A DNA stretch of 64,000 nt from Phycisphaerae bacterium (lineage in GTDB: Bacteria; Planctomycetota; Phycisphaerae; SM23-33). The position numbers and the translations under genes were made by a program. Below are positions 924 to 63,994 of this stretch, in pieces. Each line of letters starts with the position of its first letter. The first letter of the stretch is position 1. The notes beneath the pieces are model-generated. The model was not told the DNA's origin and did not search any database. It saw only the letters and a program-made list of their open reading frames with translations. Location: NCBI GenBank assembly GCA_021108335.1, contig JAIORC010000188.1, positions 10,240 through 74,239 on the forward strand. The letters are read 5' to 3'.

Positions 924-2086
924 GCGCCCAAAAGAGCGACGAAAAAACTACCGCCGCCACCCCTGCAAAGGCGACTGCCGAAACTCTCAGCCAGTGGCAG
1001 TTGATCCACCGGCGGTTCATCAAACACAAGCTGGCCGTGGCGGCAATGTTTGTGTTGATCTTATTGTATTTCCTGGCTATTTTCGCCGAGAGTTTCGCAC
1101 CATACACGCGAATGTGGAAAGACCTGGATCACTCGTACTGCCCGCCGCAAGTCGTGCATTTCAATCTCTCCGATGGCATCTACGTCAATACGCTCAAGCA
1201 GCACGTTGATCCGATAACCTTCCAGAAAAGCTATTTCGAAGTGCCAGGCAAGCCAATTCCGCTGGGCTTCTTTGTCAAGGGCGAAGAGTACAAATTATGG
1301 GGGCTGAGCCTGCTACCATCGAACCGACATTTCTTCGGTGTAGATCATGATGCCTATGAAAAAGCCTATCCAGATAGCGATGTTGTCCCGACGTTTTATC
1401 TGTTGGGGGCAGACGAGTACGGCCGGGATATTTTCAGCCGTATTGTCTACGGCTCGCGGATTTCGCTTTCGGTGGGCCTGGTCGGTGTGTTCTTTACGTT
1501 TATTTTCGGCATGTCGATTGGCGGGGTCAGCGGCTACGTTGGCGGCTCGACGGACAACATCATCCAGCGTGGCATCGAGATTCTCAACGCCTTTCCACGG
1601 CTGCCGTTATGGCTGGCGCTTGCGGCGGCAATGCCGCAGGACTGGTCGCCGCTGGAGATATACTTTGCCATCACGATCGCGTTGAGCCTGCTTGGCTGGA
1701 CGCGACTTGCCCGCGTGGTGCGCGGTAAAATACTGTCCCTGCGGGAAGAAGACTACGCGATGGCTGCCAGGCTGATCGGTGCCAGCCATGGGCGGATTAT
1801 CTTCCGCCACCTGCTGCCTGGCTTCACCAGCCACATTATCGTAGCCCTGACGCTCAGTGTTCCGGGTATGATTCTTGGCGAAACATCGCTCAGCTTCCTG
1901 GGCCTGGGGCTTCGCCCGCCGATCGTAAGCTGGGGCGTGATGCTGCAGGATTGCATGGACGTCAAAGCCGTTTCTTTCTACCCATGGCTGATGTTACCCG
2001 TTATATTCATCGTGCTGACGGTACTGTGCTTCAACTTCCTTGGTGACGGCCTGCGCGACGCCGCCGATCCGTATTCGTCGAGATAA
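920..2086 (+). CDS. Oligopeptide ABC transporter permease (OppC/DppC-like) with long N-terminal extension
   Basis: ATGA overlap with the upstream permease. Motifs [23 protein letters not shown] and [18 protein letters not shown] are typical of OppC. Confidence 0.85.
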
Positions 2087-2090
2087 AATT

Positions 2091-3140
2091 ATGCAAGATA
2101 CGCAAGAATTACAAGAAATCGAGCCGCAGGAACTGCCGGAGAATGTCCTGGAGTTGAGAGACCTCAAGACTTATTTCTTTACCGACGACGGCACGCTGCC
2201 GGCGGTGGACGGCGTTACGTTTAGCGTCAAACGCGGCAAAACCCTGGCCCTTGTGGGCGAGAGCGGCTGCGGCAAGAGCGTTACCAGCTACTCCGTGCTA
2301 CGGCTGATCCAGAAGCCCGGCGAGATTGTCGAAGGCGAAATCCTGCTCCACACCAACGACTATCAAACCATCGATATCGCCCAATTGACCGAAAAGTCCG
2401 ATCTGCTTTTCCACGTTCGCGGCGGACTGGTGAGCATGATTTTTCAAGAGCCGATGACCGCGCTCAGCCCAGTTCACACCATCGGCAACCAGATTTGCGA
2501 GGCCATCCTGCTGCACCAGAACGTTACCAAGGCCCAGGCCGAGGAGATCGCCATCGAGATGCTTCACAAGGTCGGCATCCCCGGCCCGGAGCAGCGGATG
2601 AACCAGTATCCCCACGAGCTTTCCGGCGGCATGCGTCAGCGCGTTGTTATCGCGATGGCCTTGGTGTGCAAGCCTCAGCTATTGATCGCCGACGAGCCGA
2701 CGACTGCGTTGGACGTAACGATCCAGGCCCAGGTGCTGCGGCTGATTAACGACCTCAAGGCCGAACTGGGCACGAGCGTGCTGTTCATCACGCACGACCT
2801 TGGCGTCGTCGCGCAGATTGCCGACGAGGTGGCGGTGATGTACCTCGGCCGCATCGTCGAACAGGGCGACGTCCGCATCGTAATGAAAAATCCGCTGCAC
2901 CCGTATACGCGATGTTTGCTGAAGTCGCTGCCGGGTCTCAGTGGGCACCACAAACGCCTGGATTCCATCGAAGGTTCCGTGCCGAGCTTGACGGAAATTC
3001 CGCCGGGCTGCCCGTTCCACCCGCGTTGTCCAGACTTCGTTGCCGGCGTCTGCGACGTCGGCAACCCGCCGGAACTGCAGGAGTTGCGGGACGGACACTA
3101 TGTTGCCTGCGCGCGGGCCGAGGAGGTCAACCAGAAATGA
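2091..3140 (+). CDS. Oligopeptide ABC transporter ATP-binding protein (OppD-like)
   Basis: Walker A GESGCGKS, ABC signature LSGGMRQR, Walker B LLIADEPTTALD, and an OppD-type C-terminal Cys-rich tail. The ATG at 2091 is preferred over the 2040 ORF start. Confidence 0.85.
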   Translation: MQDTQELQEIEPQELPENVLELRDLKTYFFTDDGTLPAVDGVTFSVKRGKTLALVGESGCGKSVTSYSVLRLIQKPGEIVEGEILLHTNDYQTIDIAQLTEKSDLLFHVRGGLVSMIFQEPMTALSPVHTIGNQICEAILLHQNVTKAQAEEIAIEMLHKVGIPGPEQRMNQYPHELSGGMRQRVVIAMALVCKPQLLIADEPTTALDVTIQAQVLRLINDLKAELGTSVLFITHDLGVVAQIADEVAVMYLGRIVEQGDVRIVMKNPLHPYTRCLLKSLPGLSGHHKRLDSIEGSVPSLTEIPPGCPFHPRCPDFVAGVCDVGNPPELQELRDGHYVACARAEEVNQK

Positions 3141-4141: not shown

Positions 4142-4200
4142 CGCCGCCGGCAATTAATCAATAGCCCGGCGCGTAATACTGTGCGCGATAAGTAATGCTT

Positions 4201-4230
4201 GGGTGGCATGGTTTGCTTGCAAGCCATGTG
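4201..4230. repeat. REP-like palindromic element (GGGTGGCATGG-hairpin-CCATG family)
   Basis: gggtggcatggtttgcttgcaagccatgtg. The same core recurs at 12.8-13.2 kb, 41144, 59896 and 62921. Confidence 0.6.
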
Positions 4231-4277
4231 TTTTTCGTGTATTCCCAGTACCAGTTTCCTGGTTCCTGTTTTAACCC

Positions 4278-4454
4278 GTTTTGGGTAGGCCGGGTCTTGA
4301 CCCGGCGATAAGAAGGCGACAGCCTTCTTACATGGAAATCCCCTCCGATAACACATCCATGGGAAATGTATTTTTTGCCACGGGTGCCCCGAATTGGACG
4401 AATTTGTTGCATGTGCCATGCAATTGCCGGGTCAAGACCCGGCCTACCCAAAAC
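4278..4454. repeat. MITE-like element with perfect 29-bp terminal inverted repeats
   Basis: gttttgggtaggccgggtcttgacccggc at 4278-4306 is the exact reverse complement of 4426-4454. Each arm also contains an internal hairpin (gccgggtc/gacccggc). Mirrored ORFs 4158-4451(-) and 4281-4493(+) both start MGRPGLDPAI as an artefact. Confidence 0.5.
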
Positions 4455-11697: not shown

Positions 11698-12783
11698 TTA
11701 CTCAATCCAGCCGCCGCCCATGAGAATTTCCCCGTCGTAGACCACCGCCGCCTGGCCGGGCGTTATGGCGTGTATCGGCTCGGCGAAATCCACGGTAAAC
11801 GTGTCCGGGCCTGTTATTTTCACCCTCGCCAGTGCCCCGCGGTGGTTATAGCGAATCTGTACCGTCGCGTCGAATTCCGTTACGTCAGGCTGAGACTGCC
11901 AGACTGCCCCGGCTGCGTTCAGCGAGCGGCTGGACGCCTCTGCCCGCGTGCCGATGGTAACGTCGCCGCTGATCGGATCGATACGCGTAACATACATCGG
12001 CACGCCCGTAGCCACGGCAAGCCCCCGCCGCTGGCCTATCGTGAACTGCCCATAGCCGTCGTGCCGGCCAAGCTCATCGCCGGCGGTGTTGAGAATCCGC
12101 CCCGGCTTAAGTGCCTCCGGTGCTCGCTCGGCAAGCAGCCGAACGTAATCGTCATCTTCGACGAAGCATATCTCCTGGCTGTCCGGTTTGTCGTGGACGT
12201 CCAGCCCACTCTGCCGGGCGATTTCCCGCACGAGGGCTTTGTCGGCGATTTCGCCCACCGGTAGGAGGATGCGGCTGAGCTTTTCCGGTGGAATGCTGAA
12301 AAGTGCGTAGGACTGATCCTTCCGCACGTCGCAGCCGCGAGCGATAACGGGCTGGTCCGCCCGCTCGGATATCCGGGCATAATGGCCGGTGGCTACGTAA
12401 TCCATGCCCAGCGAGTCGGCCAGTTTCATCAGCCTGCCGAATTTCAGTTTCGCGTTGCAGTAGATGCACGGGTTTGGGGTTCGCCCGGCGACGTATTCCC
12501 GCAGGAAATATTCGATAATCGGGGCGAAATGCTCCTTGAGGTTCAGCACGTGCAGATCGATGCCGAGACTCTGGGCTACGCGTCGGGCGTCGGCGGCGTC
12601 CTGCGGGCTGCAACAGCCGCGGTCGCTGCCGGCATCGCCTGCCGAGCCGAGACACATGAACACACCCGTGAGGTCGTAACCCTTCCCCAGCAGCAACGCC
12701 GCAGCTACCGACGAATCCACCCCGCCGCTCATAGCCAGCAAAACCTTCCCGGCGCCTTTCGCATTTTTCGCATCCAAAGCCAT
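11698..12783 (-). CDS. mnmA: tRNA 2-thiouridine(34) synthase MnmA
   Basis: PP-loop AMSGGVDSS, conserved Cys (FMCLG, NPCIYCN) and an MnmA C-terminal domain. Confidence 0.9.
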   Translation of the reverse strand: MALDAKNAKGAGKVLLAMSGGVDSSVAAALLLGKGYDLTGVFMCLGSAGDAGSDRGCCSPQDAADARRVAQSLGIDLHVLNLKEHFAPIIEYFLREYVAGRTPNPCIYCNAKLKFGRLMKLADSLGMDYVATGHYARISERADQPVIARGCDVRKDQSYALFSIPPEKLSRILLPVGEIADKALVREIARQSGLDVHDKPDSQEICFVEDDDYVRLLAERAPEALKPGRILNTAGDELGRHDGYGQFTIGQRRGLAVATGVPMYVTRIDPISGDVTIGTRAEASSRSLNAAGAVWQSQPDVTEFDATVQIRYNHRGALARVKITGPDTFTVDFAEPIHAITPGQAAVVYDGEILMGGGWIE

Positions 12784-12830
12784 GACGATATCTTACCGCA
12801 TGTTTCGTATGGCAGCCATATCCTCTTTTG

Positions 12831-13206
12831 GGTGGCACAGGTTTGCAACCTGTGCCGTGGTGGCCTGGGAAGGCCACCACGCGAAAGGGTTTATGCAATT
12901 TCCCACGATGTAGGGTGGCATGGTCAGCGGCGATAGCCGATGGCCATGAAAGATAGATACACGATGGCGGATGGTATGTTGGGTGGTTTTGAGAAAAGGA
13001 TGGCGTAGAAATTGTGAATCGATCTTTCATGGCTACCCCGCAAAAAACGCGGGGTTTCCATGCCACCCGATATCGTGGGAAATTGCCCGGTGCCATGCTT
13101 CTGCTTGCAGAAGCATGCGGTCCCAGAAAAAATCCTGGGTGGCATGGCGACACCGCAGGGGTCGCCATGAAGAATCGTGCGGAAACCGCGTGGGTGCAAG
13201 CACCCA
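12831..13206. repeat. Cluster of at least six REP-like palindromic elements (BIME-like array) in the mnmA/yqaA-like intergenic region
   Basis: Hairpins ggcacaggtttgcaacctgtgcc, cgtggtggcctgggaaggccaccacg, ccccgcaaaaaacgcgggg, gcatgcttctgcttgcagaagcatgc, gggtggcatggcgacaccgcaggggtcgccatga and gggtgcaagcaccc. The ORFs called here are translation artefacts of the repeats. Confidence 0.65.
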
Positions 13207-13267
13207 CCCTACAATTACGCGTGCGTTTAATATTGACCTCCATTGGCCAATGCGCTATCGTACCGGC

Positions 13268-14002
13268 ATGGAAAAAGTCAATTGTCCGAAATGTAATCTG
13301 AAAATATCCGTCGAAGCCGCGTTTTGTGAGCATTGCGGGGCGAAAATCGCCAAGCACAAAACCGCTCCGTGGTGGCATGTCCATCGGCACGTCTACGACT
13401 GGACGCTGGCCTGGGCGTACAAGCCCTCCGCCGCCATCGCCCTGTTCGTGCTGAGTTTCGCAGAGAGCAGCTTTTTCCCCGTGCCGCCGGACGTACTGCT
13501 TATGCCCCTGGTTCTCGGCAATCGCAAGAAATGGCTGCGATACGCCACCATTTGCAGCGTCGCCAGCGTGCTTGGTGCGCTGTTCGGTTTTCTCATCGGC
13601 TGGCAGCTCTGGACGCAATTAGGTGTGGACAAATTATTCTTCGATTACGTGCCCGGCTTTTCGCAGGAGACGTTTGATAAAGTCAGTGCGCTGTACAATG
13701 AGTACAATTTCTGGATTGTCTTCACCGCCGGCTTTACGCCGATACCATTCAAGGTGATTACCATCACCGCGGGTGTTTTTGGTACGGGGGCGTCGGTGGA
13801 TAATCCGGGGCTGTTCTTCGCTGTGTTTGTAATCGCCGCGACAGTCAGCCGCTCGGCGAGGTTCTTCCTGGTCAGCGGGCTGATGTGGAAATACGGGCCG
13901 AAGATCACGCCCTTTATCGACAAGTATTTCAATTGGCTGGCGTTGCTGTTTACCGTGCTGCTGATCGGCGGCTTCGTGATAATTAAAATCGTGATGCACT
14001 GA
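13268..14002 (+). CDS. Zinc-ribbon fused to YqaA/DedA(VTT)-like membrane protein
   Basis: N-terminal CPKCN...CEHCG zinc ribbon followed by a multi-TM domain resembling the YqaA family. An alternative start lies at 13250. Confidence 0.55.
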   Translation: MEKVNCPKCNLKISVEAAFCEHCGAKIAKHKTAPWWHVHRHVYDWTLAWAYKPSAAIALFVLSFAESSFFPVPPDVLLMPLVLGNRKKWLRYATICSVASVLGALFGFLIGWQLWTQLGVDKLFFDYVPGFSQETFDKVSALYNEYNFWIVFTAGFTPIPFKVITITAGVFGTGASVDNPGLFFAVFVIAATVSRSARFFLVSGLMWKYGPKITPFIDKYFNWLALLFTVLLIGGFVIIKIVMH

Positions 14003-41080: not shown

Positions 41081-41082
41081 TA

Positions 41083-41243
41083 CCGGGCGCACAAAATTAG
41101 TGCGATCGCGAGTAAAATGTCTAATGACTAAAAAAACACGCTGGGTGGCATGGCGACACCGCAGGGGTCGCCATGAGGGATGGCGTAGGAATTGCGTGGT
41201 GGCCTTGTTACCTCGTCTGGCGCACTAACTTTGTGCGCCCGGT
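41083..41243. repeat. MITE-like element: REP-like hairpin flanked by 23-bp inverted repeats
   Basis: accgggcgcacaaaattagtgcg at 41083-41105 versus cgcactaactttgtgcgcccggt at 41221-41243 (22/23 complementary). Inside lies gggtggcatggcgacaccgcaggggtcgccatga (41144-41177), identical to the copy at 13135-13170. Confidence 0.5.
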
Positions 41244-41323
41244 ATAATAGCATGCGGCAGAGTAGACACGCTGCCGACAGGAAAGGGCAAATTGTTTTGT
41301 GCATCCTAAAAAAGGTGAATTTA

Positions 41324-44263
41324 ATGCGCTGGAAATTATTGGTTTTGACGGGCTTTATGGCGATGTTTTTCGTTGGCGCCTCGGTTGCGGACGCCGCGGA
41401 GGACAAGCCGGTTTTGTGCATACGCAAAACGCCCCGCCCGCCGGTAATTGACGGGAAGCTGGACAAGGGCGAATGGGCCGGCCGCGGCGAAATTCCCCTG
41501 GTTCGCCTGCACAGCGGAAAGGGTAACGCGTCGCAGCCGGCCAAGGCTTTTGTTACTTATGACGATAAGAACCTGTATTTCGGCGTGCGTTGCGCCGAGT
41601 CGAACATCGGCAAAATAAAAGCCAATGTCAAGGAGCACAACGGCGATATCTGGTATGACGACGATATTGAAGTATTTATCGATACGAATCACGATAAGAT
41701 CAGCTATCACCAATATGCCGTCAATTCCATCGGCACGCAGTGGGACCGCGATTCGTCGAAAAAGGGAGCCTGGAAAGCGGCGGCGAAGGTGTATGCCGAT
41801 CACTGGGTCGTGGAGATAGCCATACCTTTTACCGTACTCGGGATAACGCCGGACGACGGTCTGGTTTGTGGATTTAATCTCACCCGTACGCGGCCTGGTA
41901 AGCCGACTGAGGTAAGCACCTGGTCTCCCCAGAAAGGGTCGATTCACGCCCCGGCGCGCTTCGGCTATCTGGTTTTCGGTACTCTCAAGGCTGCCGCCGA
42001 CCGTAAGGGGAAGCTGCTCCGGGCACAGTTGGACGCGCTGACTGGGGAGACAACCGCAAAGGCCGCTTTGCTTAAGCAGGTTAAAGCGATGGAGAATTTG
42101 GTTCGGAAGGGCGAGAGTTTCAAAGTGGCCCGATATCAGGCTATTCGCAAATCGGCGGCGGCGATTGAAAAGAAGATTGAGGCACTGGCGCGAGCGGAGC
42201 TGGTCGCGAAATTAACTGCCGGAGATACGGGAAAGAAACACCTTCTGACTTCCGCCGCTGCGCGAAGCGGTTATGACGTGCCGGGCAACTGGCGGATGCG
42301 AAAAATTCTGGGCAAGGAATTCTGGCATGATATTTCATATCACAGGATGCCAATGTTCAAGCAGGCAGGCCTCGCGGACGAGCCGTTTATAAAAAACGCG
42401 ATGCCGGCGATTCGCACCCGGGGCAGTGCAACTTTCGAGCGTGTTTTTTTTGATCCCAAATCCGCGACTCGAAAAATGCTGAAAAGTACCGGCAAGCCGT
42501 TTTGCGTAGCATCTGCCGGCGGCAGCTTCGCCCTCGGCCTTGAGCCTTCGGTATGCCGCAGATTCATCAAGGAGTACGGCAAGCAGTTCGCCGGTTTCGT
42601 TGCGGACGAATGCTTCGGGCATGATGCCCGGAAAAAATGGCCTCGCATGAATCTCCCCATGCCGAAAACCCGGCACGAAGCGTTTCTGGGATTTGCCGCG
42701 CAATTTCTGGAGCGCCGGAGGGTGGCTTTCCACAATTGGGCGCTTTGCTACGTGGAATTCCGGCCTTGGGCGATATGCACGTTCTCCACACCCCTCGATC
42801 ATTATGCGCTCGAACTCGGCCCGATCAAGATGGCCGGCACGGAAATCGGTGGGCATATGAAAAGCATGGCCATGATTTTTGCTTTCTCGCGGGGAGCCTC
42901 GCGTCAATACGATAAGCCCTGGCGGATGTATCTCGCCGTCTTTGGGCCGGGTGTTATCTCGGATTCGACACAGGGCTATCGCGTTCTGTCGCCGCGGTGC
43001 CGCAACGCGGCCCCCACCTCTTTCTGGGATACCGGGCCGAATAGCGGCACTTCTTTGTCGCTGCAAAAACGGCAGATACTGTCTGCGTATATGTCCGGGA
43101 TGAATATGTTCCACGACGAGGGCGACAGCGATTGCGGTTCGCTTTACGTCGCCAATTACGACTATCGGAAAATTGACAGCGTCGACGACCTTGTGATCGT
43201 ATTGCGGGACACGCCGCATTGCCTGTCGCCGGCGGGAGCAATCCGCAAGGAGTTCCATGACAATATTGTCAATACGCGCGACCGCGGCGTAATTTATACG
43301 CCGGTAGCCCTGATTTTCGACCGCTTTCACGGATACATGCCCAAGCACTATCAGGATCGGATTCTGGGAGTGATTCCGTACAAAGAGGCTGACTACATGA
43401 TGCGGGCGGTCAATCAGACGCTGTTTCCGTGGGAGCATCGCTCCGGCGAGCAGCAGGCGATGGTTACCGGCCCGTTCGGCGACATGTTCGACGTTTTGAC
43501 CAACAACGCTGAGAGCGAAGTGCTGAGTACTTACGGGGCGGCGATGCTTGTCGGCAATGTCGAGATGAACGGGTATTTCGTGCAAAGGCTCATCAAGTAC
43601 GTCGAGAACGGCGGAACGCTGATTATCAACGCCAGGCAGATCAACGGTAGATTGCCGGAAAAATTTCTCGGCTGCAAAGTAACGAAAAAACGAGGCCGGG
43701 GCAAAATAGCGTTCAGTAACCTTGATAAGTCGGTAATCGTCGAACGCAAGCCCTTCAACTTCCAATACCTCAAGCCGACAACCGCGACGACGCTTGTTTC
43801 TCTGGTCGAGGGCAACAAGAAAACCGTGCCGTTGGTGTTGTCGAACAAGTACGGCAAAGGCAGAGTGATCGTTACCGCGCCGGATTATCTTAAGGAATCC
43901 GGCAGCAAAACGCAGATGCTGAAATTGTTCAGCCATCTCATGCGGCGGCTCAACTCCGAATTGCTGCCGGTGGCGGTGGAAGGAAATGTTGAGTATATCG
44001 TCAATCGCAACAAGAGCGGCTGGGTGGTAACGCTCATCAATAACGAAGGTGTGTACAAACCACCTGGCCAAAAACCAATCGTCAAATCCGAGGAAAACGT
44101 GGTCGCGAAAGTTATTCTGAAGCGTAACGCCGCGGCGAAAGTCTCGAAAGTCAGCGAGTGGCTCACCGGCAAAGAGCTGAAACTCGCCGAAACCCCGCAG
44201 GGCATGGAAGTAACCCTCACCGTCCCAGCCGGCGATGTGCGGATTATCGAATTCGCACAATGA
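41324..44263 (+). CDS. Family A paralog 3
   Basis: True start MRWKLLVLTGFMAMFFVGASVADA, in frame with the longer 41192 ORF. CBM9-like PPVIDGKLDKGEW and a C-terminus ending IIEFAQ. Confidence 0.6.
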   Translation: MRWKLLVLTGFMAMFFVGASVADAAEDKPVLCIRKTPRPPVIDGKLDKGEWAGRGEIPLVRLHSGKGNASQPAKAFVTYDDKNLYFGVRCAESNIGKIKANVKEHNGDIWYDDDIEVFIDTNHDKISYHQYAVNSIGTQWDRDSSKKGAWKAAAKVYADHWVVEIAIPFTVLGITPDDGLVCGFNLTRTRPGKPTEVSTWSPQKGSIHAPARFGYLVFGTLKAAADRKGKLLRAQLDALTGETTAKAALLKQVKAMENLVRKGESFKVARYQAIRKSAAAIEKKIEALARAELVAKLTAGDTGKKHLLTSAAARSGYDVPGNWRMRKILGKEFWHDISYHRMPMFKQAGLADEPFIKNAMPAIRTRGSATFERVFFDPKSATRKMLKSTGKPFCVASAGGSFALGLEPSVCRRFIKEYGKQFAGFVADECFGHDARKKWPRMNLPMPKTRHEAFLGFAAQFLERRRVAFHNWALCYVEFRPWAICTFSTPLDHYALELGPIKMAGTEIGGHMKSMAMIFAFSRGASRQYDKPWRMYLAVFGPGVISDSTQGYRVLSPRCRNAAPTSFWDTGPNSGTSLSLQKRQILSAYMSGMNMFHDEGDSDCGSLYVANYDYRKIDSVDDLVIVLRDTPHCLSPAGAIRKEFHDNIVNTRDRGVIYTPVALIFDRFHGYMPKHYQDRILGVIPYKEADYMMRAVNQTLFPWEHRSGEQQAMVTGPFGDMFDVLTNNAESEVLSTYGAAMLVGNVEMNGYFVQRLIKYVENGGTLIINARQINGRLPEKFLGCKVTKKRGRGKIAFSNLDKSVIVERKPFNFQYLKPTTATTLVSLVEGNKKTVPLVLSNKYGKGRVIVTAPDYLKESGSKTQMLKLFSHLMRRLNSELLPVAVEGNVEYIVNRNKSGWVVTLINNEGVYKPPGQKPIVKSEENVVAKVILKRNAAAKVSKVSEWLTGKELKLAETPQGMEVTLTVPAGDVRIIEFAQ

Positions 44264-51833: not shown

Positions 51834-53621
51834 ATGCGAATTCATAATTGGTTGTGTTTTCTTTTGATAGTAGCGTGGATGTTCTGCGCTGGCGTATCTT
51901 GGGCGCAGTCGCCTCGTCCCAAATATACTTGTTATAAGATCCCCAAAGGGGCCGTCAAAATCGATGGTGTCCTGGACGAAAAGTGCTGGTCGCGGACTCC
52001 GTGGCTGGACTTGCGGAACACGAAAACCGGCAAACGCATTGCCTATCCGTCGAAAGTGCGAATGTTGTGGGATGACAAATATCTCTACGCGGGCTATGAC
52101 GTAGGCTATGTGGATGTGTTCGGCAAGGAGACGAAAAGAGACACGCCTTTCTATAAAAAAAAAGAAATGTTCGTAAAGCTTTTTCTGGACCCTGACGCAA
52201 ACGGCACGGATGTTTTTGAAATCCATGTTTCGCCGCGGAATTGCGTGTACGATGTCCGACAGGCTATCCCGAACCATAATCAAAATCCCCCTGGCACAGT
52301 AGCCGCCAAGTGGAACTGCAAGGGGCTTCTCAGTGCGGTTCGTATTAACGGAACCCTGAATAATTCAGCTGATGTGGATCGAGGATATACCGTGGAGCTG
52401 GCTATTCCGTGGGCGTCGATACGCAAATTCACGATTGGCAAGTGCCCTCCCTCGCCGGGGGACCGTTGGGCTGTAAGTCCGCAATGTCGGTATTTTCTGC
52501 AACCGTCGAAGAATGGAATATGCCGCGGCAAAGCGTATTATGCCAGTTGGCCGAAACTCGGTATTATTGATTCACATGTTTATGACAGGTATGGACATAT
52601 GATTTTTTCATCACAAAGCCCCAGAATGCTCGAATGGAAACTAGCCTGGATATGGACCCTGCCGTCGAAAACCGACGCGCAGATCGAAGACGCCGTCGTC
52701 AAGGCCAAAGCAATGGGCTTCAATGCGATAGCGTGGAATGCCAGGTGGAAACCGTTCATTCACGCGTGCAGAAAACATGGCATGCAAGCATATGCCGTTA
52801 TCTCCCCAGATTACGGGAAAGCCTGGGGAACCACAAAGCACGAACAGGTAATGCTTCCTGGAGAGGAGAAATTACCCTCCAGTCGCAAAGATAATCCAAC
52901 TTATCAGGAAGGCGGCGAGCCGCTTGGAGGAGCTATAGGAACAGAAATCCGCCGAGCCACTTTGCCTTGTTTCAGGCATCCGCATGTCCTTGAACAATTC
53001 CGCAAAAAAATTCGCCAAAGCGTGGATCGAGGCTATTCGGGAATTGCCTTCGATTGGATTGGTTACAAGAATCTTCACGGGTGTTACTGTGAACACTGCA
53101 AGCGGCTTGCCCGTAAGGCGGCCCCGCCCGGAATGTCTCCGCAGGAGGCAGACCGCCGGTTTCAAGAGGAAACGCTCACGCAATTCTACAAGAACATATG
53201 CGATTACGCCAAATCCTACGCTAAATCCCTGAACAGGACCGTCAAAACCACATGCCATGTCTACCCGGCCTTTTTACCGAACAATCTCTATGGTAACAAG
53301 CTGCCGGTGGACTATTGCGGCCAGACGGTTTCGTGGTTTTTCAAGCCTCATTGGAAATTCGAGAAAATCGAACGCTACACGCGGTACGTCGTGGAGAATG
53401 ACTCTTTGTACCACCGGCACAGTGTAGGTGCGCCTTTTATCGCTTTCTACGGCAAGGGAACCTTCGCTGTCGATGTCAAGTCGGCTGGGCGTGTTAGAAA
53501 AGAGATTCAAATTATCAAGAAATGCGGTGCAAGGGCTATCCAGTTTGCCGAACTGGGGAATATTCTGGCAGTCCCTGCTGTCGCCAAGGTTGTCACAGAA
53601 GAGCTTAATGACCAAGAATAA
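51834..53621 (+). CDS. Secreted CBM9-like N-module fused to a putative TIM-barrel glycosidase-like domain containing a Cys cluster
   Basis: Signal peptide; CBM9-like VKIDGVLDEKCW...LFLDPDANGTDVFEIHV...YTVELAIPWASI; C-terminal ~330 aa with GFNAIAWNARWKPF...GYSGIAFDWIGYKNLHGCYCEHCKRLA. Confidence 0.45.
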   Translation: MRIHNWLCFLLIVAWMFCAGVSWAQSPRPKYTCYKIPKGAVKIDGVLDEKCWSRTPWLDLRNTKTGKRIAYPSKVRMLWDDKYLYAGYDVGYVDVFGKETKRDTPFYKKKEMFVKLFLDPDANGTDVFEIHVSPRNCVYDVRQAIPNHNQNPPGTVAAKWNCKGLLSAVRINGTLNNSADVDRGYTVELAIPWASIRKFTIGKCPPSPGDRWAVSPQCRYFLQPSKNGICRGKAYYASWPKLGIIDSHVYDRYGHMIFSSQSPRMLEWKLAWIWTLPSKTDAQIEDAVVKAKAMGFNAIAWNARWKPFIHACRKHGMQAYAVISPDYGKAWGTTKHEQVMLPGEEKLPSSRKDNPTYQEGGEPLGGAIGTEIRRATLPCFRHPHVLEQFRKKIRQSVDRGYSGIAFDWIGYKNLHGCYCEHCKRLARKAAPPGMSPQEADRRFQEETLTQFYKNICDYAKSYAKSLNRTVKTTCHVYPAFLPNNLYGNKLPVDYCGQTVSWFFKPHWKFEKIERYTRYVVENDSLYHRHSVGAPFIAFYGKGTFAVDVKSAGRVRKEIQIIKKCGARAIQFAELGNILAVPAVAKVVTEELNDQE

Positions 53622-53631
53622 GGAAAATATT

Positions 53632-56595
53632 ATGCATGGAAAAGTATTAATTTTGGCAGGTTTTATGGCGATGTGTTTCGTTGGCGGTTCGGTTATTGCT
53701 GCCGGGAAGGACTCTCAAGAGAAATATCTGTGCATCAGCAAAACCGCTCGCCCGCCGGTAATTAACGGAAAGCTTGGTAAGGACGAATGGGCCGGCAGCG
53801 CCAAAATCTCCGGCTTTGTGCTGAAGGGCGGAATCGGTGCCCCGACGCAACAGACGGAAGTCTTTATCACTTATGACGACAAGACTTTTTACTTTGCCGC
53901 GCGTTGCCTCGAATCGAGCATGGATAAAATCAGAACCAGGGTAAAGGAGCACAACGGGGCGGTTTATAATGACGATAACATCGAGTTGTTTATCGATACG
54001 AATTATGATCGATACAGCTATCGGCAGTTTGTCCTGAATTCCATCGCCACGCAGTGGAGCGATGATATATCGAAAAAGGGAGCATGGTCCGCGGCTGCGA
54101 AGGAGCGCGATGACTGCTGGGTCGTGGAAATGGCCATACCCTTCACCCAGCTTGGCATGACGCCGGAAAAGGGGCTTGTCTGCGGGCTGAACATCTGTCG
54201 TATCCGATGGGGCAACAGGAAGCCGGAGCTGAGTTGCTGGTCGCCGACGTACGGTGGGTTTCATTCGCCGGGACATTTCGGCTGCATGGTCTTTGGTTCT
54301 TTCCAAGAAGTAGCAGCCCGTGAGGCCGGCAAACTCAGGGCGCGGCTTGACAAGATTACGGCGAAAGATTCTGACAAGGCCCCAGTGCTTGCAGAGATTA
54401 AAAAGCTGGAGGATTCGGTCAAGCCGGACGAAAAATTCGACGTAGACCGATATCGGGCGCTCCGCAAATCGGCCGAGGCCATTGGTGAAAAAATAGTAGA
54501 CCTTGGGTTGTCGGACTTGCGCGCGAAATTGACCGGCGCCGGCACGGTGGAAACGCAGCATCTGACTTCTGCCGCCTCACGGGGCAATTACAAGTTCCCG
54601 GAAAACTGGCGGAGCCGGAAGATTCTGGGGCAATATGAATTCCTGCACGATCTCTCGAATCACAAAAAGTCCCTTTACAAAAAAGCCGGGCTTGCGGATG
54701 AGCCTTTTATCAAGGACGCTCTTATGGGGGTTTACGTCCTGCACAATAAGATGTTCAAGAAGAAATTCTTCGACCCCAAATCCCCTATCCGAAAAGAGCT
54801 GAAAAAAACCGGCAGACCGTTCTGCATAAACGCCCTGGTCGGTAATAAGCGTATCAGCGACATTCCGCCTTCCCTGTGCCGCCGATTCATCAAGGAATAC
54901 GGCGACCAGTTTGTCGGTTTTATCGCGGACGAAAGCTTTGGCCATAACGCCCATAAAAAATGGAAGCATCTGGGGGTAAGCAAGCCGAAAAACCGGAAAG
55001 ACGCGTTTATGGTTTTTGTAGCCTGTGCGTTGGATCGGCACACGAAGATTTTCCGCAACTGGGCCTTGGGCCATACTGAATTCCGCAACTGGTCGGTTTG
55101 CACGTTTTCGGATCCGCTGGACCATTTAGCGCTTGAAACCCATAACCTCGTGATGTCCGGCCATGAAATCGGTGGATTTGTGCCGTGTACGCCTTTGTTG
55201 TTTGCTTTTTCCCGTGGTGCGGCAAGGCAATACGATAAGCCGTGGAGGACGTACCTGGCGGTTTGGGGGCCGGGCGTGGTTTGGGGTTCTGTAAAGGGCT
55301 ACAATGTATTGTCGCCCCGATGTCGCACACCGTTTCATCGGCCAACGTGGGAGAGAGGCCCGTACTGCGGCACGTCGCTTTCGCTTCAGAAGCGACAAAT
55401 TCTTGCGGCCTACATGTCGGGCACAAACATATTCCGCGATGAAAGCGATGCCGATTGCGGTTCGCTCTATGTCGCCCATTACGACCATCGCACCATTGAT
55501 ACCGTTGACGACCTCGTGCTGGTATTGCGGGACCAACCCTACGCCCTTTCGCCGGCCGGTGAGATTCGCAAGGAGCTCCACGACAATATCGTCAAGAAGC
55601 ATGATCGCGGCGCGGCCTACACGCCGGTGGCGCTGGTCTTCGATCGATATCACGGGTATATGTCCACACACTATCGCGACCAGATACAAGGCCTGATCCC
55701 ATACACCGAAGCGGATTACATGATGCGGGCGGTCAACGATACGCTGTTCCCGTGGGATCATCGCACGGGCGAGCGGAAGACGATGGTAACCGGGCCTTTC
55801 GGCGACATGTTCGACGTTCTGACAAACAACACTCCCGGCGAAGTGCTTGACACGTATAAAGCGGCGATGCTTGTTGGGGATGTCGCTCTGGACGGGAGCT
55901 TTGTGAACAAGCTCGTCAAGTACGTCAAAAACGGCGGAACGTTGATTATTAACGCCAAACAGATCAAAGGCAAGCTGCCGAAAAAATTCCAGGAAATGCT
56001 CGGCTGCAAGGTAACAGAAAAACGCGGCAAGGGAATCACGGTGTTCAGCAAACTGGATAATTCGGTGATACCGGAGAAAAAATCCTTCAACTTCCAATAC
56101 CTTGAGCCGACAACCGCGACACCGCTCGTTTTCCTGGTCGAAGGTGACAAAAAAACCGTGCCGCTGGTGTTGTCGAACAAATACGGCAAGGGCAGAGCGA
56201 TCGTTACCGCGCCGGATTATCTTAAGGAATCCGGCAGCAAGACGCGGATGCTGAAATTGTTCAGCCATCTCATGCGGCATCTCAACTCCGAACTGCTGCC
56301 GGTGAAGGTGGAAGGAAATGTTGAATATATCGTCAACCGCAACAAGAACGGCTGGGTGGTAACGCTCATCAACAACGAGGGCGTGTACAAATATCCCGGC
56401 AAAAAAGAAATCGTCAAATCCGAGGAAAACGTCATCGCGAAAGTTACTCTGAAGCGTAATGCCGCCGCGAAAGTCTCGAAAGTAGGCGAGTGGCTCACAG
56501 GCAAAAAGCTGAAATCCGCCGACACCCCACAGGGGACGAAAGTAACTATTACCGTTCCGGCTGGCGACGTGCGGATTATAGAATTCGAGCAATAA
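53632..56595 (+). CDS. Family A paralog 5
   Basis: True start MHGKVLILAGFMAMCFVGGSV, in frame with the 53428 ORF. About 85% identical to paralog 1 in the CBM9-like region. Confidence 0.6.
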   Translation: MHGKVLILAGFMAMCFVGGSVIAAGKDSQEKYLCISKTARPPVINGKLGKDEWAGSAKISGFVLKGGIGAPTQQTEVFITYDDKTFYFAARCLESSMDKIRTRVKEHNGAVYNDDNIELFIDTNYDRYSYRQFVLNSIATQWSDDISKKGAWSAAAKERDDCWVVEMAIPFTQLGMTPEKGLVCGLNICRIRWGNRKPELSCWSPTYGGFHSPGHFGCMVFGSFQEVAAREAGKLRARLDKITAKDSDKAPVLAEIKKLEDSVKPDEKFDVDRYRALRKSAEAIGEKIVDLGLSDLRAKLTGAGTVETQHLTSAASRGNYKFPENWRSRKILGQYEFLHDLSNHKKSLYKKAGLADEPFIKDALMGVYVLHNKMFKKKFFDPKSPIRKELKKTGRPFCINALVGNKRISDIPPSLCRRFIKEYGDQFVGFIADESFGHNAHKKWKHLGVSKPKNRKDAFMVFVACALDRHTKIFRNWALGHTEFRNWSVCTFSDPLDHLALETHNLVMSGHEIGGFVPCTPLLFAFSRGAARQYDKPWRTYLAVWGPGVVWGSVKGYNVLSPRCRTPFHRPTWERGPYCGTSLSLQKRQILAAYMSGTNIFRDESDADCGSLYVAHYDHRTIDTVDDLVLVLRDQPYALSPAGEIRKELHDNIVKKHDRGAAYTPVALVFDRYHGYMSTHYRDQIQGLIPYTEADYMMRAVNDTLFPWDHRTGERKTMVTGPFGDMFDVLTNNTPGEVLDTYKAAMLVGDVALDGSFVNKLVKYVKNGGTLIINAKQIKGKLPKKFQEMLGCKVTEKRGKGITVFSKLDNSVIPEKKSFNFQYLEPTTATPLVFLVEGDKKTVPLVLSNKYGKGRAIVTAPDYLKESGSKTRMLKLFSHLMRHLNSELLPVKVEGNVEYIVNRNKNGWVVTLINNEGVYKYPGKKEIVKSEENVIAKVTLKRNAAAKVSKVGEWLTGKKLKSADTPQGTKVTITVPAGDVRIIEFEQ

Positions 56596-59125: not shown

Positions 59126-59346
59126 AAGGAATGCAGTTGCCGCTCTACTGAAGCATCAGCTAGTATTCCGTCCCGTAAAAATTGATGGGTGCCGTGGCGG
59201 GAGCGAAGCGACAGCCACGACGTAACTATTGCGAGAAAGCCCTTTGGGGGCGTCCAGCAATTTAACAGGGACGCGGCACTAGGCTGGCTTGGATAATGGG
59301 AACCGAATCCATCATTTTGCGTCAAAGAAGTGAAGGAGATTTGGTC

Positions 59347-59895: not shown

Positions 59896-59933
59896 CCAGT
59901 GCCGTGCTTCTGCAAGCAGAAGCACGGCACTGG
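59896..59933. terminator. Perfect 18-bp-stem REP-like hairpin between convergent genes, candidate bidirectional terminator
   Basis: ccagtgccgtgcttctgc-aa-gcagaagcacggcactgg followed by gcatttttt on the + strand. Same family as the 13094-13119 hairpin. Confidence 0.5.
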
Positions 59934-59963
59934 GCATTTTTTGGATGGTTGGTTATATGTTTC

Positions 59964-61312: not shown

Positions 61313-63994
61313 TTAATGGAGTCTGCCGACGAGGTTGCGGTAGTCGATTTTTCCCGTGCCGAGCAGCGGCAGTTCGTCGATGGCGATTACGCGGCGGATG
61401 TTGTGCAGGCCGCTCATGCCGGCGGCGCGGATTGCCTGGTTTGCGGCGGCGCGATCAATCGGCCCGACGGCGAACATCACGACCTCAGGCCGTTCTTCGT
61501 CCGGCGTCGCCACCACCGCCAGGGGCGGCCTGTCGTCATCCTCCCGGTGAAATCGCTCCGCCAGGACAGCCTCGATCGCCGGAAGCGAAATCATCTCGCC
61601 GCCGAGCTTGACGAACCGTTTGAGCCGGCCGCTGAATGTCAACACGCCCTCGGCGTCCTGCCTCATAAGGTCGCCGGTGCAATACCAGCTCCGCCCGTCG
61701 AGCTCCACGAACGGCGACGGCCCGTCGTAATCCAGATATCCGCCAAATACGCTAGGCCCGCGAACCAGCAACATGCCCTCGCCGCCAGGTTCGACCCGCC
61801 CCCGCAATTCGGGATCCACCAGCACATACTCCAGCGAACCCATCACCCTGCCGATGGTGCTGGCGTGAGCGTCGGATTCGTGGTTGACGGAGATCATCGG
61901 CGAGCATTCGGTTACGCCGTATCCTTCCAGTACGGTGGTCTGCGGGCACTGCCGGGCCAGTGTGTCGTAGAGGCGAGCGGGGCATTTTTCTCCGCCGCTG
62001 ACCACCAGCCGCAATGACTCAAGCTGCCGCGACTCCGACGCCCGCAGTATGCCGCTGAGGAACGTCGGCGTGCCGCCCAGAATCGTCGCCTTGTACAGAT
62101 CGATCATCCGCCCCACCACCATGCCGTCGGTGGGATTTGGGTGATGCACCACGCGGACGCCCAGCACCAGCGGCAGCAGCGTTGTTACGGTCAGGCCGAA
62201 CGAATGGAATGGCGGCAGGATGCCCAATATGCTGTCGTGGCGGCTTACGGTGAAGCAGTCGTAGGCGTCGCGGATATTCGCCAGAATGTTCCGGTGGCTC
62301 AGCGGTACTGCCTTGGGCGTACTCTCCGACCCGCTGGTGAACAGAATGACTGCTGTCTTTGTTGCGCGAGACGCCGCAGCCCGCAAACTCCCCCAGCCTA
62401 GCCGGTAAAATCGCGATTTGACGAACGCCTGCAGCTTTTCCAGCCGTCCGAGATTTGCGACGATGTCCTCGATATAAACGAACCGCTCCGCCAGCCCGCC
62501 CAGATCGACCCCTTGGGCAGTCAGTCGCGTAACCAGCGCCCTGGCGGTGAGAATCCGCTGCGTACCACTGGACTTGAGGCAGTGCTCCAGGTTCCGCGGG
62601 CCTAGCGTCCAGTTGATCATCGCGGGGGTCTTGCCGGCGAATTGTGTCGCCAGAAACAAAACATCCGCCGCCACCGATGCCGGCATCATAATGCCCACGA
62701 CCTCGCCGGCCAGCGCCCGGATGTGCCGCCGGAGAATCATAATGCTCGTTACCATGTCGCGATATGTTTTGACCCCGCCGGCTTGGTCGGCGGCGATTAC
62801 CTCGCCGGGCCGGCGACCGGCCTGATACAAAAATGCCTCCGGGATATTCATATCCTCCAGCCCCGGCGGACACGGCAGAGTGGCACAATCCTTTGAGAGC
62901 CGTGTGTTTTTCACTGCGCTGGGTGGCATGGCTTGCTTGCAAGCCATGTGTTTCCCCGTATGGCTAAACCACTTTGGCGATACCGGCTTGAGGTTCACCG
63001 CCGCAGCCGAGATCGATTCGCCGCAGGCAGCGAGCATCACGTCGCCGACCGTCTGTATCGCTGTGATGTCGTTCTGCGTAAAGCCGAACTCCGCGCCCAG
63101 CCAGGCCAGCAGCTCCATGCCCGCCAGCGAGTCCATCCCCAAGTCATTGGCCAGCCGCGACGTATCGTCGAAGTCGGCCCGGCCGATCAACTCCGCTAGA
63201 TACTCTCGCACTTGCCGCCGCGTCGCCTGCGGGACAGCCGCGGCATCCCCGGAAATCCGTGGCGGGGTCGGTTCGGGCAGTTCCCGCGTGCCGCCGCGCT
63301 CCCAAATCGTAAGCGGCACGAAGGTGTTTTTAAGTGCGTCGGTGTTGTAGCGGGATTCGAGGTAGCGATTTATTTCCTGCCGGCTGCCCTGGCGGGGCAG
63401 GTCGTCCGGCTCGACAAGTTCGAGCGTAATCTCGCGGCGTGGTGTGAAAAAAAGTCCATTCCGTAGCAGTGCCCAAGCCCCCTGTTTCAGCACAGGCCCG
63501 ACACCTGGTTCCGTGCCGCCGGCCCAACTGAAGCGGCTGCCCCAAAGCCCGCGCGTGCGAACCAGCACTACCCGAACGTCCGGCAATTCGCGGAGAATCG
63601 TCTCCACACCGCTGCCGGCCCGCAGGTCTTCCAATCGCGTTCGCTGCAATTGCCCCGACGGATACAGCACGATATTGTCGCCGCTGCGCAACGCCTCGAC
63701 GCATTGGCCGATGACCGCCCGCACCGCATCCGACGACGTTCCGATTTCCGTCAGGTCGTCGATGGGCAGCACGCGACACCGCCGGGCCAGCGAGCGGATG
63801 AAGAAGCGGTCGATCTGGTTGCGGTCAGCCAGCGCCCGCACCTCGAAAGGCCCGAACAGCCGCGACAGGACAATCACCGGATCGATCAGGGCAGGGTGAT
63901 TCGGCAGGAACAGAATCCCCCGGCTGCCCTTTCCCAGCACCTCAGCCAGCCCGCGGACGCGAATGCGATATCGCAGCCATAGCGCGAATTTCAC
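61313..63994 (-). CDS. Tri-domain Aas-like protein: PlsC-type lysophospholipid acyltransferase - acyl carrier protein - acyl-AMP/acyl-ACP synthetase
   Basis: N-terminal LPLAT motif LPNHPALIDP (HxxxxD); mid ACP motif LGMDSLAGMELLAWL (DSL phosphopantetheine site); C-terminal AMP-binding ILFTSGSESTPKAV, GYGVTE and GDL...GR..R. The N-terminus abuts the window end. Confidence 0.8.
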   Translation of the reverse strand: MKFALWLRYRIRVRGLAEVLGKGSRGILFLPNHPALIDPVIVLSRLFGPFEVRALADRNQIDRFFIRSLARRCRVLPIDDLTEIGTSSDAVRAVIGQCVEALRSGDNIVLYPSGQLQRTRLEDLRAGSGVETILRELPDVRVVLVRTRGLWGSRFSWAGGTEPGVGPVLKQGAWALLRNGLFFTPRREITLELVEPDDLPRQGSRQEINRYLESRYNTDALKNTFVPLTIWERGGTRELPEPTPPRISGDAAAVPQATRRQVREYLAELIGRADFDDTSRLANDLGMDSLAGMELLAWLGAEFGFTQNDITAIQTVGDVMLAACGESISAAAVNLKPVSPKWFSHTGKHMACKQAMPPSAVKNTRLSKDCATLPCPPGLEDMNIPEAFLYQAGRRPGEVIAADQAGGVKTYRDMVTSIMILRRHIRALAGEVVGIMMPASVAADVLFLATQFAGKTPAMINWTLGPRNLEHCLKSSGTQRILTARALVTRLTAQGVDLGGLAERFVYIEDIVANLGRLEKLQAFVKSRFYRLGWGSLRAAASRATKTAVILFTSGSESTPKAVPLSHRNILANIRDAYDCFTVSRHDSILGILPPFHSFGLTVTTLLPLVLGVRVVHHPNPTDGMVVGRMIDLYKATILGGTPTFLSGILRASESRQLESLRLVVSGGEKCPARLYDTLARQCPQTTVLEGYGVTECSPMISVNHESDAHASTIGRVMGSLEYVLVDPELRGRVEPGGEGMLLVRGPSVFGGYLDYDGPSPFVELDGRSWYCTGDLMRQDAEGVLTFSGRLKRFVKLGGEMISLPAIEAVLAERFHREDDDRPPLAVVATPDEERPEVVMFAVGPIDRAAANQAIRAAGMSGLHNIRRVIAIDELPLLGTGKIDYRNLVGRLH
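62921..62950. repeat. REP-like palindrome embedded in frame inside the Aas-like CDS (ACP/ligase interdomain linker)
   Basis: gggtggcatggcttgcttgcaagccatgtg is a perfect palindrome, translated on the minus strand as ...GKHMACKQAMPP... The same peptide string appears in the artefactual ORF over the 4201 copy. Confidence 0.6.

Follow-up and report, generated by a model that had tools for sequence, protein, structure and literature searches.

The repetitive extragenic palindromes (REPs) of Escherichia coli and their enzyme TnpA-REP were reportedly described by Ton-Hoang in 2012, Messing in 2012 and Corneloup in 2021. In Pseudomonas fluorescens, REP doublets forming hairpins (REPINs), the subject of the 2011 work of Bertels and Rainey, are said to be the replicating unit, composed of two inverted REPs with a short, less conserved spacer. 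Closer to the present case are the GTAG-tagged REPs known from the Planctomycetes-Verrucomicrobia-Chlamydiae group, namely GTAG-20/21/22 of Rhodopirellula baltica and GTAG-17 to -20 of Opitutus terrae (Di Nocera, De Gregorio & Rocco 2013, BMC Genomics 14:522; PMC3733652). GTGG is the predominant head in GTAG-20 of O. terrae. GTAG REPs form head-outward dimers with 20-100 bp spacers, belong to several families per genome, include in-frame intragenic copies, and occur as REPtrons; for R. baltica, the tyrosine transposase genes that have repeats at their flanks were described as 'a plethora' (PMC3733652). Quentin et al. (2018) placed the acidobacterial 'TIRYT' proteins aba_3477 and tsa_392 in 'arc a/b' around subclass 2.2, and the REPs of the atypical REP-associated tyrosine transposases (RAYTs) of the 2.2 arc are enriched in GTGG heads (PMC6006769). 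The GTAG head is essential for the cleavage of single-stranded REPs, and both reactions, cleavage and strand transfer, take place beside the hairpin (PMC8266576). Here we analyse a family of hairpin repeats in a 64,000-nucleotide stretch (the window) of contig JAIORC010000188.1 from a Phycisphaerae bacterium, assembly GCA_021108335.1.

A first-pass annotation of the window had taken these repeats for REP-like palindromes. Our results agree with it: the repeats are very probably REPs and REPINs of a GT[AG]G-tagged family that belongs to a RAYT system, in Planctomycetota. This assignment follows from the anatomy of the units, their intergenic bias, their spread across genomes, their position at the flanks of RAYT genes in relatives, and the covariation of these flanks. 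The units have a 5' GT[AG]G head followed by a hairpin and are extragenic, and a repeat identical to one of them flanks a RAYT gene in related genomes. They occur singly or as head-outward inverted doublets, that is, REPINs or head-to-head dimers ('HH dimers') like those of bacterial interspersed mosaic elements (BIMEs).

The units of the window were collected by a scan for perfect hairpins and a scan for a head followed by a hairpin. Chance expectations were obtained from dinucleotide-preserving shuffles of the window. The 11-mer GGGTGGCATGG occurs six times (at 4201, 12913, 13137, 41143 and 62921 on the plus strand, and at 13068 on the minus strand), compared with 1.3 in the shuffles. All six copies are closed by CCATG within 8-30 nt, an arrangement found zero times in the shuffles. 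The first-pass annotation had counted at least ten copies with this head and the closing CCATG. The repeat is real, but only six copies carry the full head, whereas the others have other stems and one of the shorter heads GGGTGG, GGGTAG, GGTGC or GGGTGC. Defined by head and hairpin, the wider family numbers about 14 units here, with the hairpin directly after a six-base head GGGTGG, GGGTAG or G(G)GTGC, and perfect stems of 8-18 bp. Like REPs in general, which are palindromes of 20-50 nt able to form a stable hairpin, the units are short. Folded as single-stranded DNA, they yield -5.6 to -21.8 kcal/mol (z-scores from -1.6 to -8.9), and the 6-nt head stays unpaired. The heads GGGTGG and GGGTAG contain the GTGG or GTAG tag, whereas GGTGC and GGGTGC deviate from the strict GT[AG]G.

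Inverted pairs are formed by the units at 4283/4449, 12913/13068 and 13137/13209. Close copies are found at large distances: the 36-nt unit 13135-13170 is 100% identical to 41141-41176, and 4200-4233 is 97% identical to 62920-62953 over 34 nt. The hairpin CATGGCGACaccgcagggGTCGCCATG, reported as identical at 13143 and 41150, is indeed present in both places, the second copy starting at 41149. A further reported family, gcttctgc-tt/aa-gcagaagc at 13094 and 59905, was recovered at 13094-13117 and within the 38-nt palindrome 59896-59933, and 13084-13115 matches 59905-59936. All six singlet units of the window have the head on the plus strand, which is the strand of rising cumulative GC skew; this suggests that it is the leading strand. 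The plus strand also codes for most genes here and the copies are few, so the cause of this orientation bias cannot be separated.

Gene limits were taken from the list of open reading frames (ORFs), Pfam hits and gene calls on an overlapping contig. Twelve of 13 units are wholly intergenic, whereas only 6.3% of the window is intergenic (P ~5e-14 assuming independent units). When loci are counted instead, four of five are intergenic, corresponding to ~7e-5 from the same fraction. Copies had been placed at operon boundaries, and this holds both for the one at 4201, which follows an opp-type ABC operon, and for the one at 59896, which lies between convergent genes. Several ORFs called in the window are pure translations of the repeat. 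As had been suspected of ORFs sharing the peptides HGDPCGVAMPP and CFCKQKHGTG, both peptides are repeat translations at the places given for them.

The family extends beyond the window. The adjacent 9 kb upstream on the same contig (European Nucleotide Archive ERZ26872896 NODE_178, also in NCBI; locus L165 here) brings the host sequence to 73 kb in total and contains at least six more units. It carries a second copy of a ~170-bp composite found in the window at 4278-4454 (L165 2145-2310; 89% identity over 169 nt), another copy of the unit at 13028-13068 with its flank (L165 2406-2465; 97% over 60 nt), and also a variant of the type-a unit, the type represented in the window at 13137 and 41143. 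On the 3' side of the window, extension yielded a contig of just 1.8 kb.

For other genomes, taken one per species, the head with the type-a stem, GGGTGGCATGGCGAC-N(5-13)-GTCGCCATG, served as the family probe. The head with the CATGGCGAC stem was found in at least five metagenome-assembled genomes (MAGs) of Planctomycetota, namely Planctomycetaceae CAZYDC01, Phycisphaerales CBDUQP01, Phycisphaerae JBDKRA01, Planctomycetota JAYZMM01 and Planctomycetales CAZTQK01, and in at least 120 stretches in a metagenome scan. No match to this stem-specific pattern was observed in viral contigs. A loose probe, GGGTGGCATGG-N(8-30)-CCATG, produced at least 120 single chance-type matches on viral contigs and was discarded as of no use for the family. 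CAZYDC01 has more than 50 copies in 35 stretches among the matches listed. They are near-identical and mostly form head-outward inverted doublets, dozens of which are 82 nt long with a variable 20-nt spacer; other copies are followed by a second GTGG-headed hairpin. In CBDUQP01, a variant like that of the host forms heterodimers with a 21-nt spacer.

At the CAZYDC01 loci, the two bases before GGGTGG are nearly always AA (often TAA or CAA), so many of these units begin directly at a stop codon. This AA either belongs to the element or reflects a preference for certain insertion sites. In the same MAG, a 435-aa ORF (L156 2013-3320, CAZYDC010000349.1) reads through a REP and a degenerate partner (…LQGWHGDVVCRHAATGAPDQHGDKQHRHATL…), a possible in-frame intragenic insertion.

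RAYT genes were sought with a hidden Markov model (HMM) profile made from the RAYT/TIRYT alignment of Di Nocera et al. 2013 (Additional file 5). The profile was needed because a tblastn search with E. coli RAYT and a regular expression combining HUH with Y..NP had yielded nothing convincing in the first 371 kb of the loci. In the metagenome contig L196, the profile matches a 192-aa ORF (1739-2317, minus strand) situated exactly between repeats. Its product scores 88.9 bits against NF047646, the NCBIfam model of REP-associated tyrosine transposases (cut-off 80), and 22 bits against Pfam Y1_Tnp, just under the cut-off of 23. It matches E. coli TnpA-REP (PDB 4ER8, E = 3e-8) across the HUH and Y...NP motifs, which read PEHIHLV (HUH = HIH) and YVHLNPV. 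Judged from its sequence, this enzyme is a class-2 Y1 HUH protein, not an IS200 transposase. The published proteins closest to it are the acidobacterial aba_3477 and tsa_392 (E = 5e-26 and 1e-24).

The L196 gene lies between copies of GGGTGGCATGGCGACGTTGTTTGTCGCCATG, whose heads face outward on either side. On the stop side there are three tandem 55-nt units containing GGGTGGCATGGCGACG(T/C)(T/C)GTTTGTCGCCATG, and on the start side a doublet and a single inverted copy. The REP-rich MAG itself (L290, CAZYDC010000364.1) encodes a protein of 99% identity between the same flanks, and altogether the same RAYT locus with the same repeats is present in three metagenome assemblies (L196, L289, L291) and this MAG. 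In the host, the unit at 13137-13170 agrees in head and stem with the REP that flanks the RAYT gene of L196 and L290. A homologous RAYT (59-64% identity) is found at four Phycisphaerae MAG loci (L292, L293, L295, L296), flanked by homologous REPs. These are GGTGC-CACGGCTGC-ggtgttt-GCAGCCGTG in L292, GGGTGC-CGTGGTTGC-ggttttt-GCAACCACG in L293 and L294, and GGGTGC-CGTGGTCGC-gg(c/t)gttt-GCGACCACG in L295 and L296. When aligned, the RAYT-flanking repeats have a common 9-bp stem and 7-nt loop, and five of the nine pairs are changed on both sides.

Several points weigh against the assignment to a REP/RAYT system. The HMM search found no Y1/RAYT gene in the window and the adjacent 9 kb of the host. 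The check for a tnpA-REP gene, which the first-pass annotation had proposed, was thus successful in relatives, where the gene lies between identical repeats, but not in the available part of the host. The 55-nt tandem array by the RAYT stop (L196 1590-1735; also in L289 and L290) has three copies in two assemblies, six in one, and at least five followed by an assembly gap in the MAG; the difference is either real variation or assembly collapse. In the alignment of RAYT-flanking repeats, 100% of the cells are paired, a figure that is partly due to construction, as the sequences were chosen as hairpins. Further, at least six stem types occur within 73 kb of the host, which is unusually diverse, and recognition of all of them by one enzyme is an assumption. 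Finally, REPs usually exceed 100 copies per genome, and the count for the host, about 14 units within the window plus at least six in the next 9 kb, covers 73 kb of its genome.

The mode of propagation can be proposed by homology with the E. coli and Pseudomonas systems. The hairpin would fold on single-stranded DNA, and a single-copy HUH/Y1 enzyme (RAYT, equivalent to TnpA-REP) would bind it and read the 5' head. Cleavage and rejoining beside the hairpin would then lead to copying of singlets or doublets to new, mostly intergenic sites. Some of the settled copies have likely been co-opted as transcript 3' hairpins. We infer the enzymology of the RAYT, its activity in the host and any RNA role from these homologous systems.

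Another explanation is that the hairpins arose in place, without mobile origin, as intrinsic terminators or mRNA-stabilising 3' stem-loops. The unit at 59896 does look like an intrinsic terminator for a plus-strand gene: it is a 38-nt perfect palindrome (59896-59933; fold z-score -8.9) with a 17-bp stem followed by TTTTTT, it lies downstream of that gene, and it meets the terminator consensus. The copy at 4201 is situated just past an operon and has a T-rich tail after it, and a role as RNA elements has been widely proposed for REPs (PMC3733652). However, only the 59896 palindrome qualifies. No terminator-like sites were observed in 12500-13500, where the densest cluster of units lies between divergently transcribed genes. 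Moreover, the units occur in both orientations as inverted doublets, the conserved unpaired head is no feature of terminators, one copy resides inside a coding region on the strand opposite to the gene, and identical units are found at unlinked sites, in other genomes and beside a RAYT gene. We thus consider this explanation improbable.

It is more unlikely still that the cognate enzyme is an IS200-type Y1 transposase of a 148-aa family (labelled 'RayT' by the Joint Genome Institute, JGI) rather than the 192-aa RAYT clade. In locus L221, a GGGTGG-CATGGTTCACGCG hairpin is located ~150 nt upstream of a 148-aa gene, and a type-a doublet like that of the host ~165 nt downstream; the protein matches NF033573 and PF01797. 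However, the hairpins that immediately flank this gene in L221, L286, L287 and L288 are other conserved ones, CCCCGAAGGGG and CCGGGGGC-gaa-GCCCCCGG, apparently its own. Neither CCCCGAAGGGG nor CCGGGGGC...GCCCCCGG repeats are present in the window, and no GGGTGG-CATGG units flank the gene in L286-L288. The L221 gene was accordingly rejected as a REPtron of the host type, since its own flanking hairpins differ in the homologous loci L286-L288.

The 148-aa gene occurs on 1-6 contigs per cluster in a protein search, and once at each of the four loci (L221 3590-4520; L286 9790-10700; L287 1640-2810; L288 9510-10960). In several Phycisphaerae contigs, CCCCGAAGGGG and CCGGGGGC-gaa-GCCCCCGG hairpins flank it in tandem, and the whole resembles a further REPtron-like system, based on an IS200-class enzyme. 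One more Y1 gene, in CAZYDC01 (L125 785-1530, CAZYDC010000316.1), was rejected as the cognate enzyme, as it is flanked by a different palindrome, GGTCACTWWAGTGACC, GGTCACT(A/T)(A/T)AGTGACC. It encodes a RAYT-like protein of 195 aa with 67.5 bits against NF047646, under the cut-off. CAZYDC01 therefore appears to hold two repeat/transposase pairs.

The repeats could also be miniature inverted-repeat transposable elements (MITEs), in which the GGGTGGCATGG... arms would serve as terminal inverted repeats for a DDE transposase acting in trans. The doublets do resemble such short elements, with ~31-nt terminal inverted repeats and a short centre. However, inspection of the flanks of 15 complete CAZYDC01 doublets revealed no target-site duplication, many units are singlets having one arm only, and the transposase-like genes found next to the repeats are exclusively Y1/HUH, which makes MITEs very unlikely. 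As for local duplication or chance palindromes confined to the region, a condition under which the first-pass annotation would have abandoned its own claim, the densest array does fall within one 466-bp region, but copies at five separate loci over 59 kb, more of them in the adjacent 9 kb, their lack in shuffled controls, and the recurrence of head and stem in further genomes of Planctomycetota and in metagenomes leave practically no room for it.

The 466-bp region is the divergent region between mnmA (11698-12783, minus strand) and a gene of the VTT family (13250-14002, plus strand). The dense array reported there was confirmed, but it consists of seven units, not six, and fills the region. 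The fold z-score of the entire intergenic region relative to shuffles is -12. An Rfam search of 12000-14000 at E<=1 produced two chance-level hits only (a microRNA and a small nucleolar RNA) and no known RNA family.

Unit 1 of the cluster (12830-12856, plus strand) is GGGTGG-CACAGGTT-tgc-AACCTGTG-CC with a fold z-score of -3.7, and a related copy exists at L165 223-247. It is directly followed by unit 2 (12857-12880), a palindrome GTGGTGGCC-tgggaa-GGCCACCAC with GTGG/CCAC at both ends (a 'double foot'). Unit 3 (12913-12949, plus strand), GGGTGG-CATGGTCAGCGGC-gata-GCCGATGGCCATG-A, and its inverted partner unit 4 (13028-13068, minus strand), GGGTGG-CATGGAAACCCCGC-gttttt-GCGGGGTAGCCATG-A, pair up as a long inverted doublet, 12895-13086, which reaches into 29-nt inverted flanks (12895-12923 / 13058-13086). 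Unit 5 (13089-13117, plus strand), GGTGC-CATGCTTCTGC-tt-GCAGAAGCATG, is related to the palindrome 59896-59933, and its foot GGTGC-CATG is of the type flanking the Phycisphaerae RAYT at L292. Unit 6 (13137-13170, plus strand) is the type-a unit GGGTGG-CATGGCGACaCC-gca-GGgGTCGCCATG-A, identical to 41143-41176. Its inverted partner across a 20-nt spacer is unit 7 (13190-13209, minus strand), GGGTGG-GTGC-tt-GCAC-CCAC, with a weak fold (z = -2.0).

Other units are dispersed. The type-b unit at 4200-4233 (plus strand), tGGGTGG-CATGGTTTGC-tt-GCAAGCCATG-tgttt, begins 59 nt past the stop codon of the last opp-type ABC ATPase gene. It is followed by two type-c units: GGGTAG-GCCGGGTC-tt-GACCCGGC at 4283-4306 (plus strand), the left arm of the ~170-bp inverted doublet 4278-4454, and its inverted partner at 4426-4449 (minus strand), with heads outward. 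The small inner hairpin of this GGGTAG-GCCGGGTC composite differs between the two host copies, yet is paired in both (TAAGAAGGC/GCCTTCTTA at 4309-4330 of the window, AAAAAAGGC/GCCTTTTTT at L165 2169-2189). The type-a unit at 41143-41176 (plus strand) lies between two co-directional genes of a glycoside-hydrolase cluster. On either side of it lie the arms of a 24-nt inverted repeat with 96% complementarity (41081-41104 / 41221-41244), which could form a long stem around the REP. An intergenic sequence at 59187-59219 (plus strand), GGGTGC-CGTGGC-(15 nt)-GCCACG, is probably a diverged unit, assigned with lower confidence; its head and stem base (the GGGTGC-CGTGG foot) are as in the Phycisphaerae RAYT-flanking REPs.

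The unit that is not extragenic is the type-b copy at 62920-62953 (plus strand). It lies in frame within an 893-aa acyltransferase/acyl carrier protein/AMP-binding (Aas-like) ORF (61313-63994, minus strand), where it falls in the linker that joins the PP-binding domain to the AMP-binding domain. Compared with five homologues (44-52% identity), this ORF has a 24-residue insertion (KHMACKQAMPPSAVKNTRLSKDCA) that includes the REP-encoded residues. This is consistent with insertion of a REP into the gene, at a divergence too high for proof. Within 62882-62953 of the window, the 38 nt beside this REP resemble an incomplete further copy of the 3' half of the REP.

The gene neighbourhood of the units comprises genes for an opp-type ABC transporter and a LacI regulator, for N-methyl/Laminin_G_3 proteins, and for MnmA and a VTT/DedA-like protein, besides a long series of CBM9/GH2/GH31-type genes. 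Gene content and the closest homologues as named by NCBI (Planctomycetota, Sedimentisphaerales) indicate a member of Planctomycetota, probably of the Phycisphaerae. The segment 29860-56595 contains large paralogous CBM9-containing genes: three of ~985 aa, two of ~857 aa, and two of 1023 and 1055 aa. This run has identical internal hairpins at 43879 and 56211, and an overlap of ~190 nt between the ORFs 51834-53621 and 53428-56595 may be the trace of a paralogue that is truncated or frameshifted.

The specificity of the head was assessed in ~1 Mb of fetched Planctomycetota loci as the share of hexamer occurrences with a hairpin directly after them. GGGTGG is followed by a hairpin in 265 of 858 cases (31%), 26 of which do not have the seeded stem and show 16 distinct stems. 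For GGGTGC the count is 65 of 637 (10%), none of these stems having been used for fetching. Control hexamers (permutations and single-base variants) give 0-5 cases each, at most 0.8%. Stems under both GGGTGG and GGGTGC begin with CATG, CACG or CGTG. Hence the conserved part is the head together with the foot of the hairpin, and the distal stem and the loop vary.

A tentative and rather doubtful extension is that one Planctomycetota-wide RAYT clade reads only the 6-nt head (GGGTGS) and the first four stem pairs (CRYG...CRYG), tolerating any distal stem and loop. If so, unrelated hairpins that gain the foot would become mobilisable. This would explain the occurrence of at least six stem types under one head in one genome, the terminator-like palindrome at 59896 that shares its core with a cluster unit, and the same foot in Planctomycetia and Phycisphaerae. 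Such a rule would be unlike both the bulge-dependent mode of E. coli and the whole-stem mode of Pseudomonas and Stenotrophomonas.

This class of elements has already been described in Planctomycetes (Di Nocera 2013), and the current understanding of REPs is unchanged. Less expected are the head and foot common to two classes of the phylum and the stem diversity under one head in a single genome. The analysis adds a well-documented REP/RAYT system for Planctomycetota (Phycisphaerae and Planctomycetia), so far only briefly catalogued. It also provides an annotation signature, GGGTGS followed by a CRYG-footed hairpin, which helps to avoid spurious ORF calls over the repeats. The homologous RAYT genes with covarying REPs from five lineages are material for testing substrate recognition in this clade of enzymes.

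Among the known systems, the repeats are most naturally compared with the GTAG-tagged superfamily. Both consist of short hairpins that carry the unpaired tag GT[AG]G at one end, with stems of 6-13 bp and loops of 2-4 nt; both form HH dimers and clusters, comprise several families per genome, include occasional in-frame copies, and flank RAYT genes. However, the conserved head of the planctomycete repeats is longer (GGGTGS), and the first four stem bases (CRYG) are kept across families. The stems found here (CATGGCGAC, CATGGCTTGC and others) are set beside the families of Di Nocera by description, not by consensus sequences, and the peptides listed for intragenic copies in R. baltica do not match our repeats. 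TIRYT genes have long terminal inverted repeats as flanks (PMC3733652), whereas typical short REPs and doublets flank the genes considered here.

With the E. coli REP/BIME and TnpA-REP system the planctomycete one shares an HUH/Y1 enzyme flanked by cognate REPs, the 5' tetranucleotide head by the foot of the hairpin, and inverted pairs. The sequence similarity of the enzymes is only distant (E = 3e-8), and the residues WQ adjoining the GTAG contacts in E. coli correspond to YH in the aligned L196 protein. E. coli REPs require a bulged, imperfect stem for activity, whereas most stems here are perfect and an internal loop is seen only in some variants. Finally, the dozens of near-identical 82-nt doublets of CAZYDC01, with their varying 20-nt spacers, are analogous to the REPINs of P. 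fluorescens, although the spacer is shorter (~20 nt) and the phylum is a different one.

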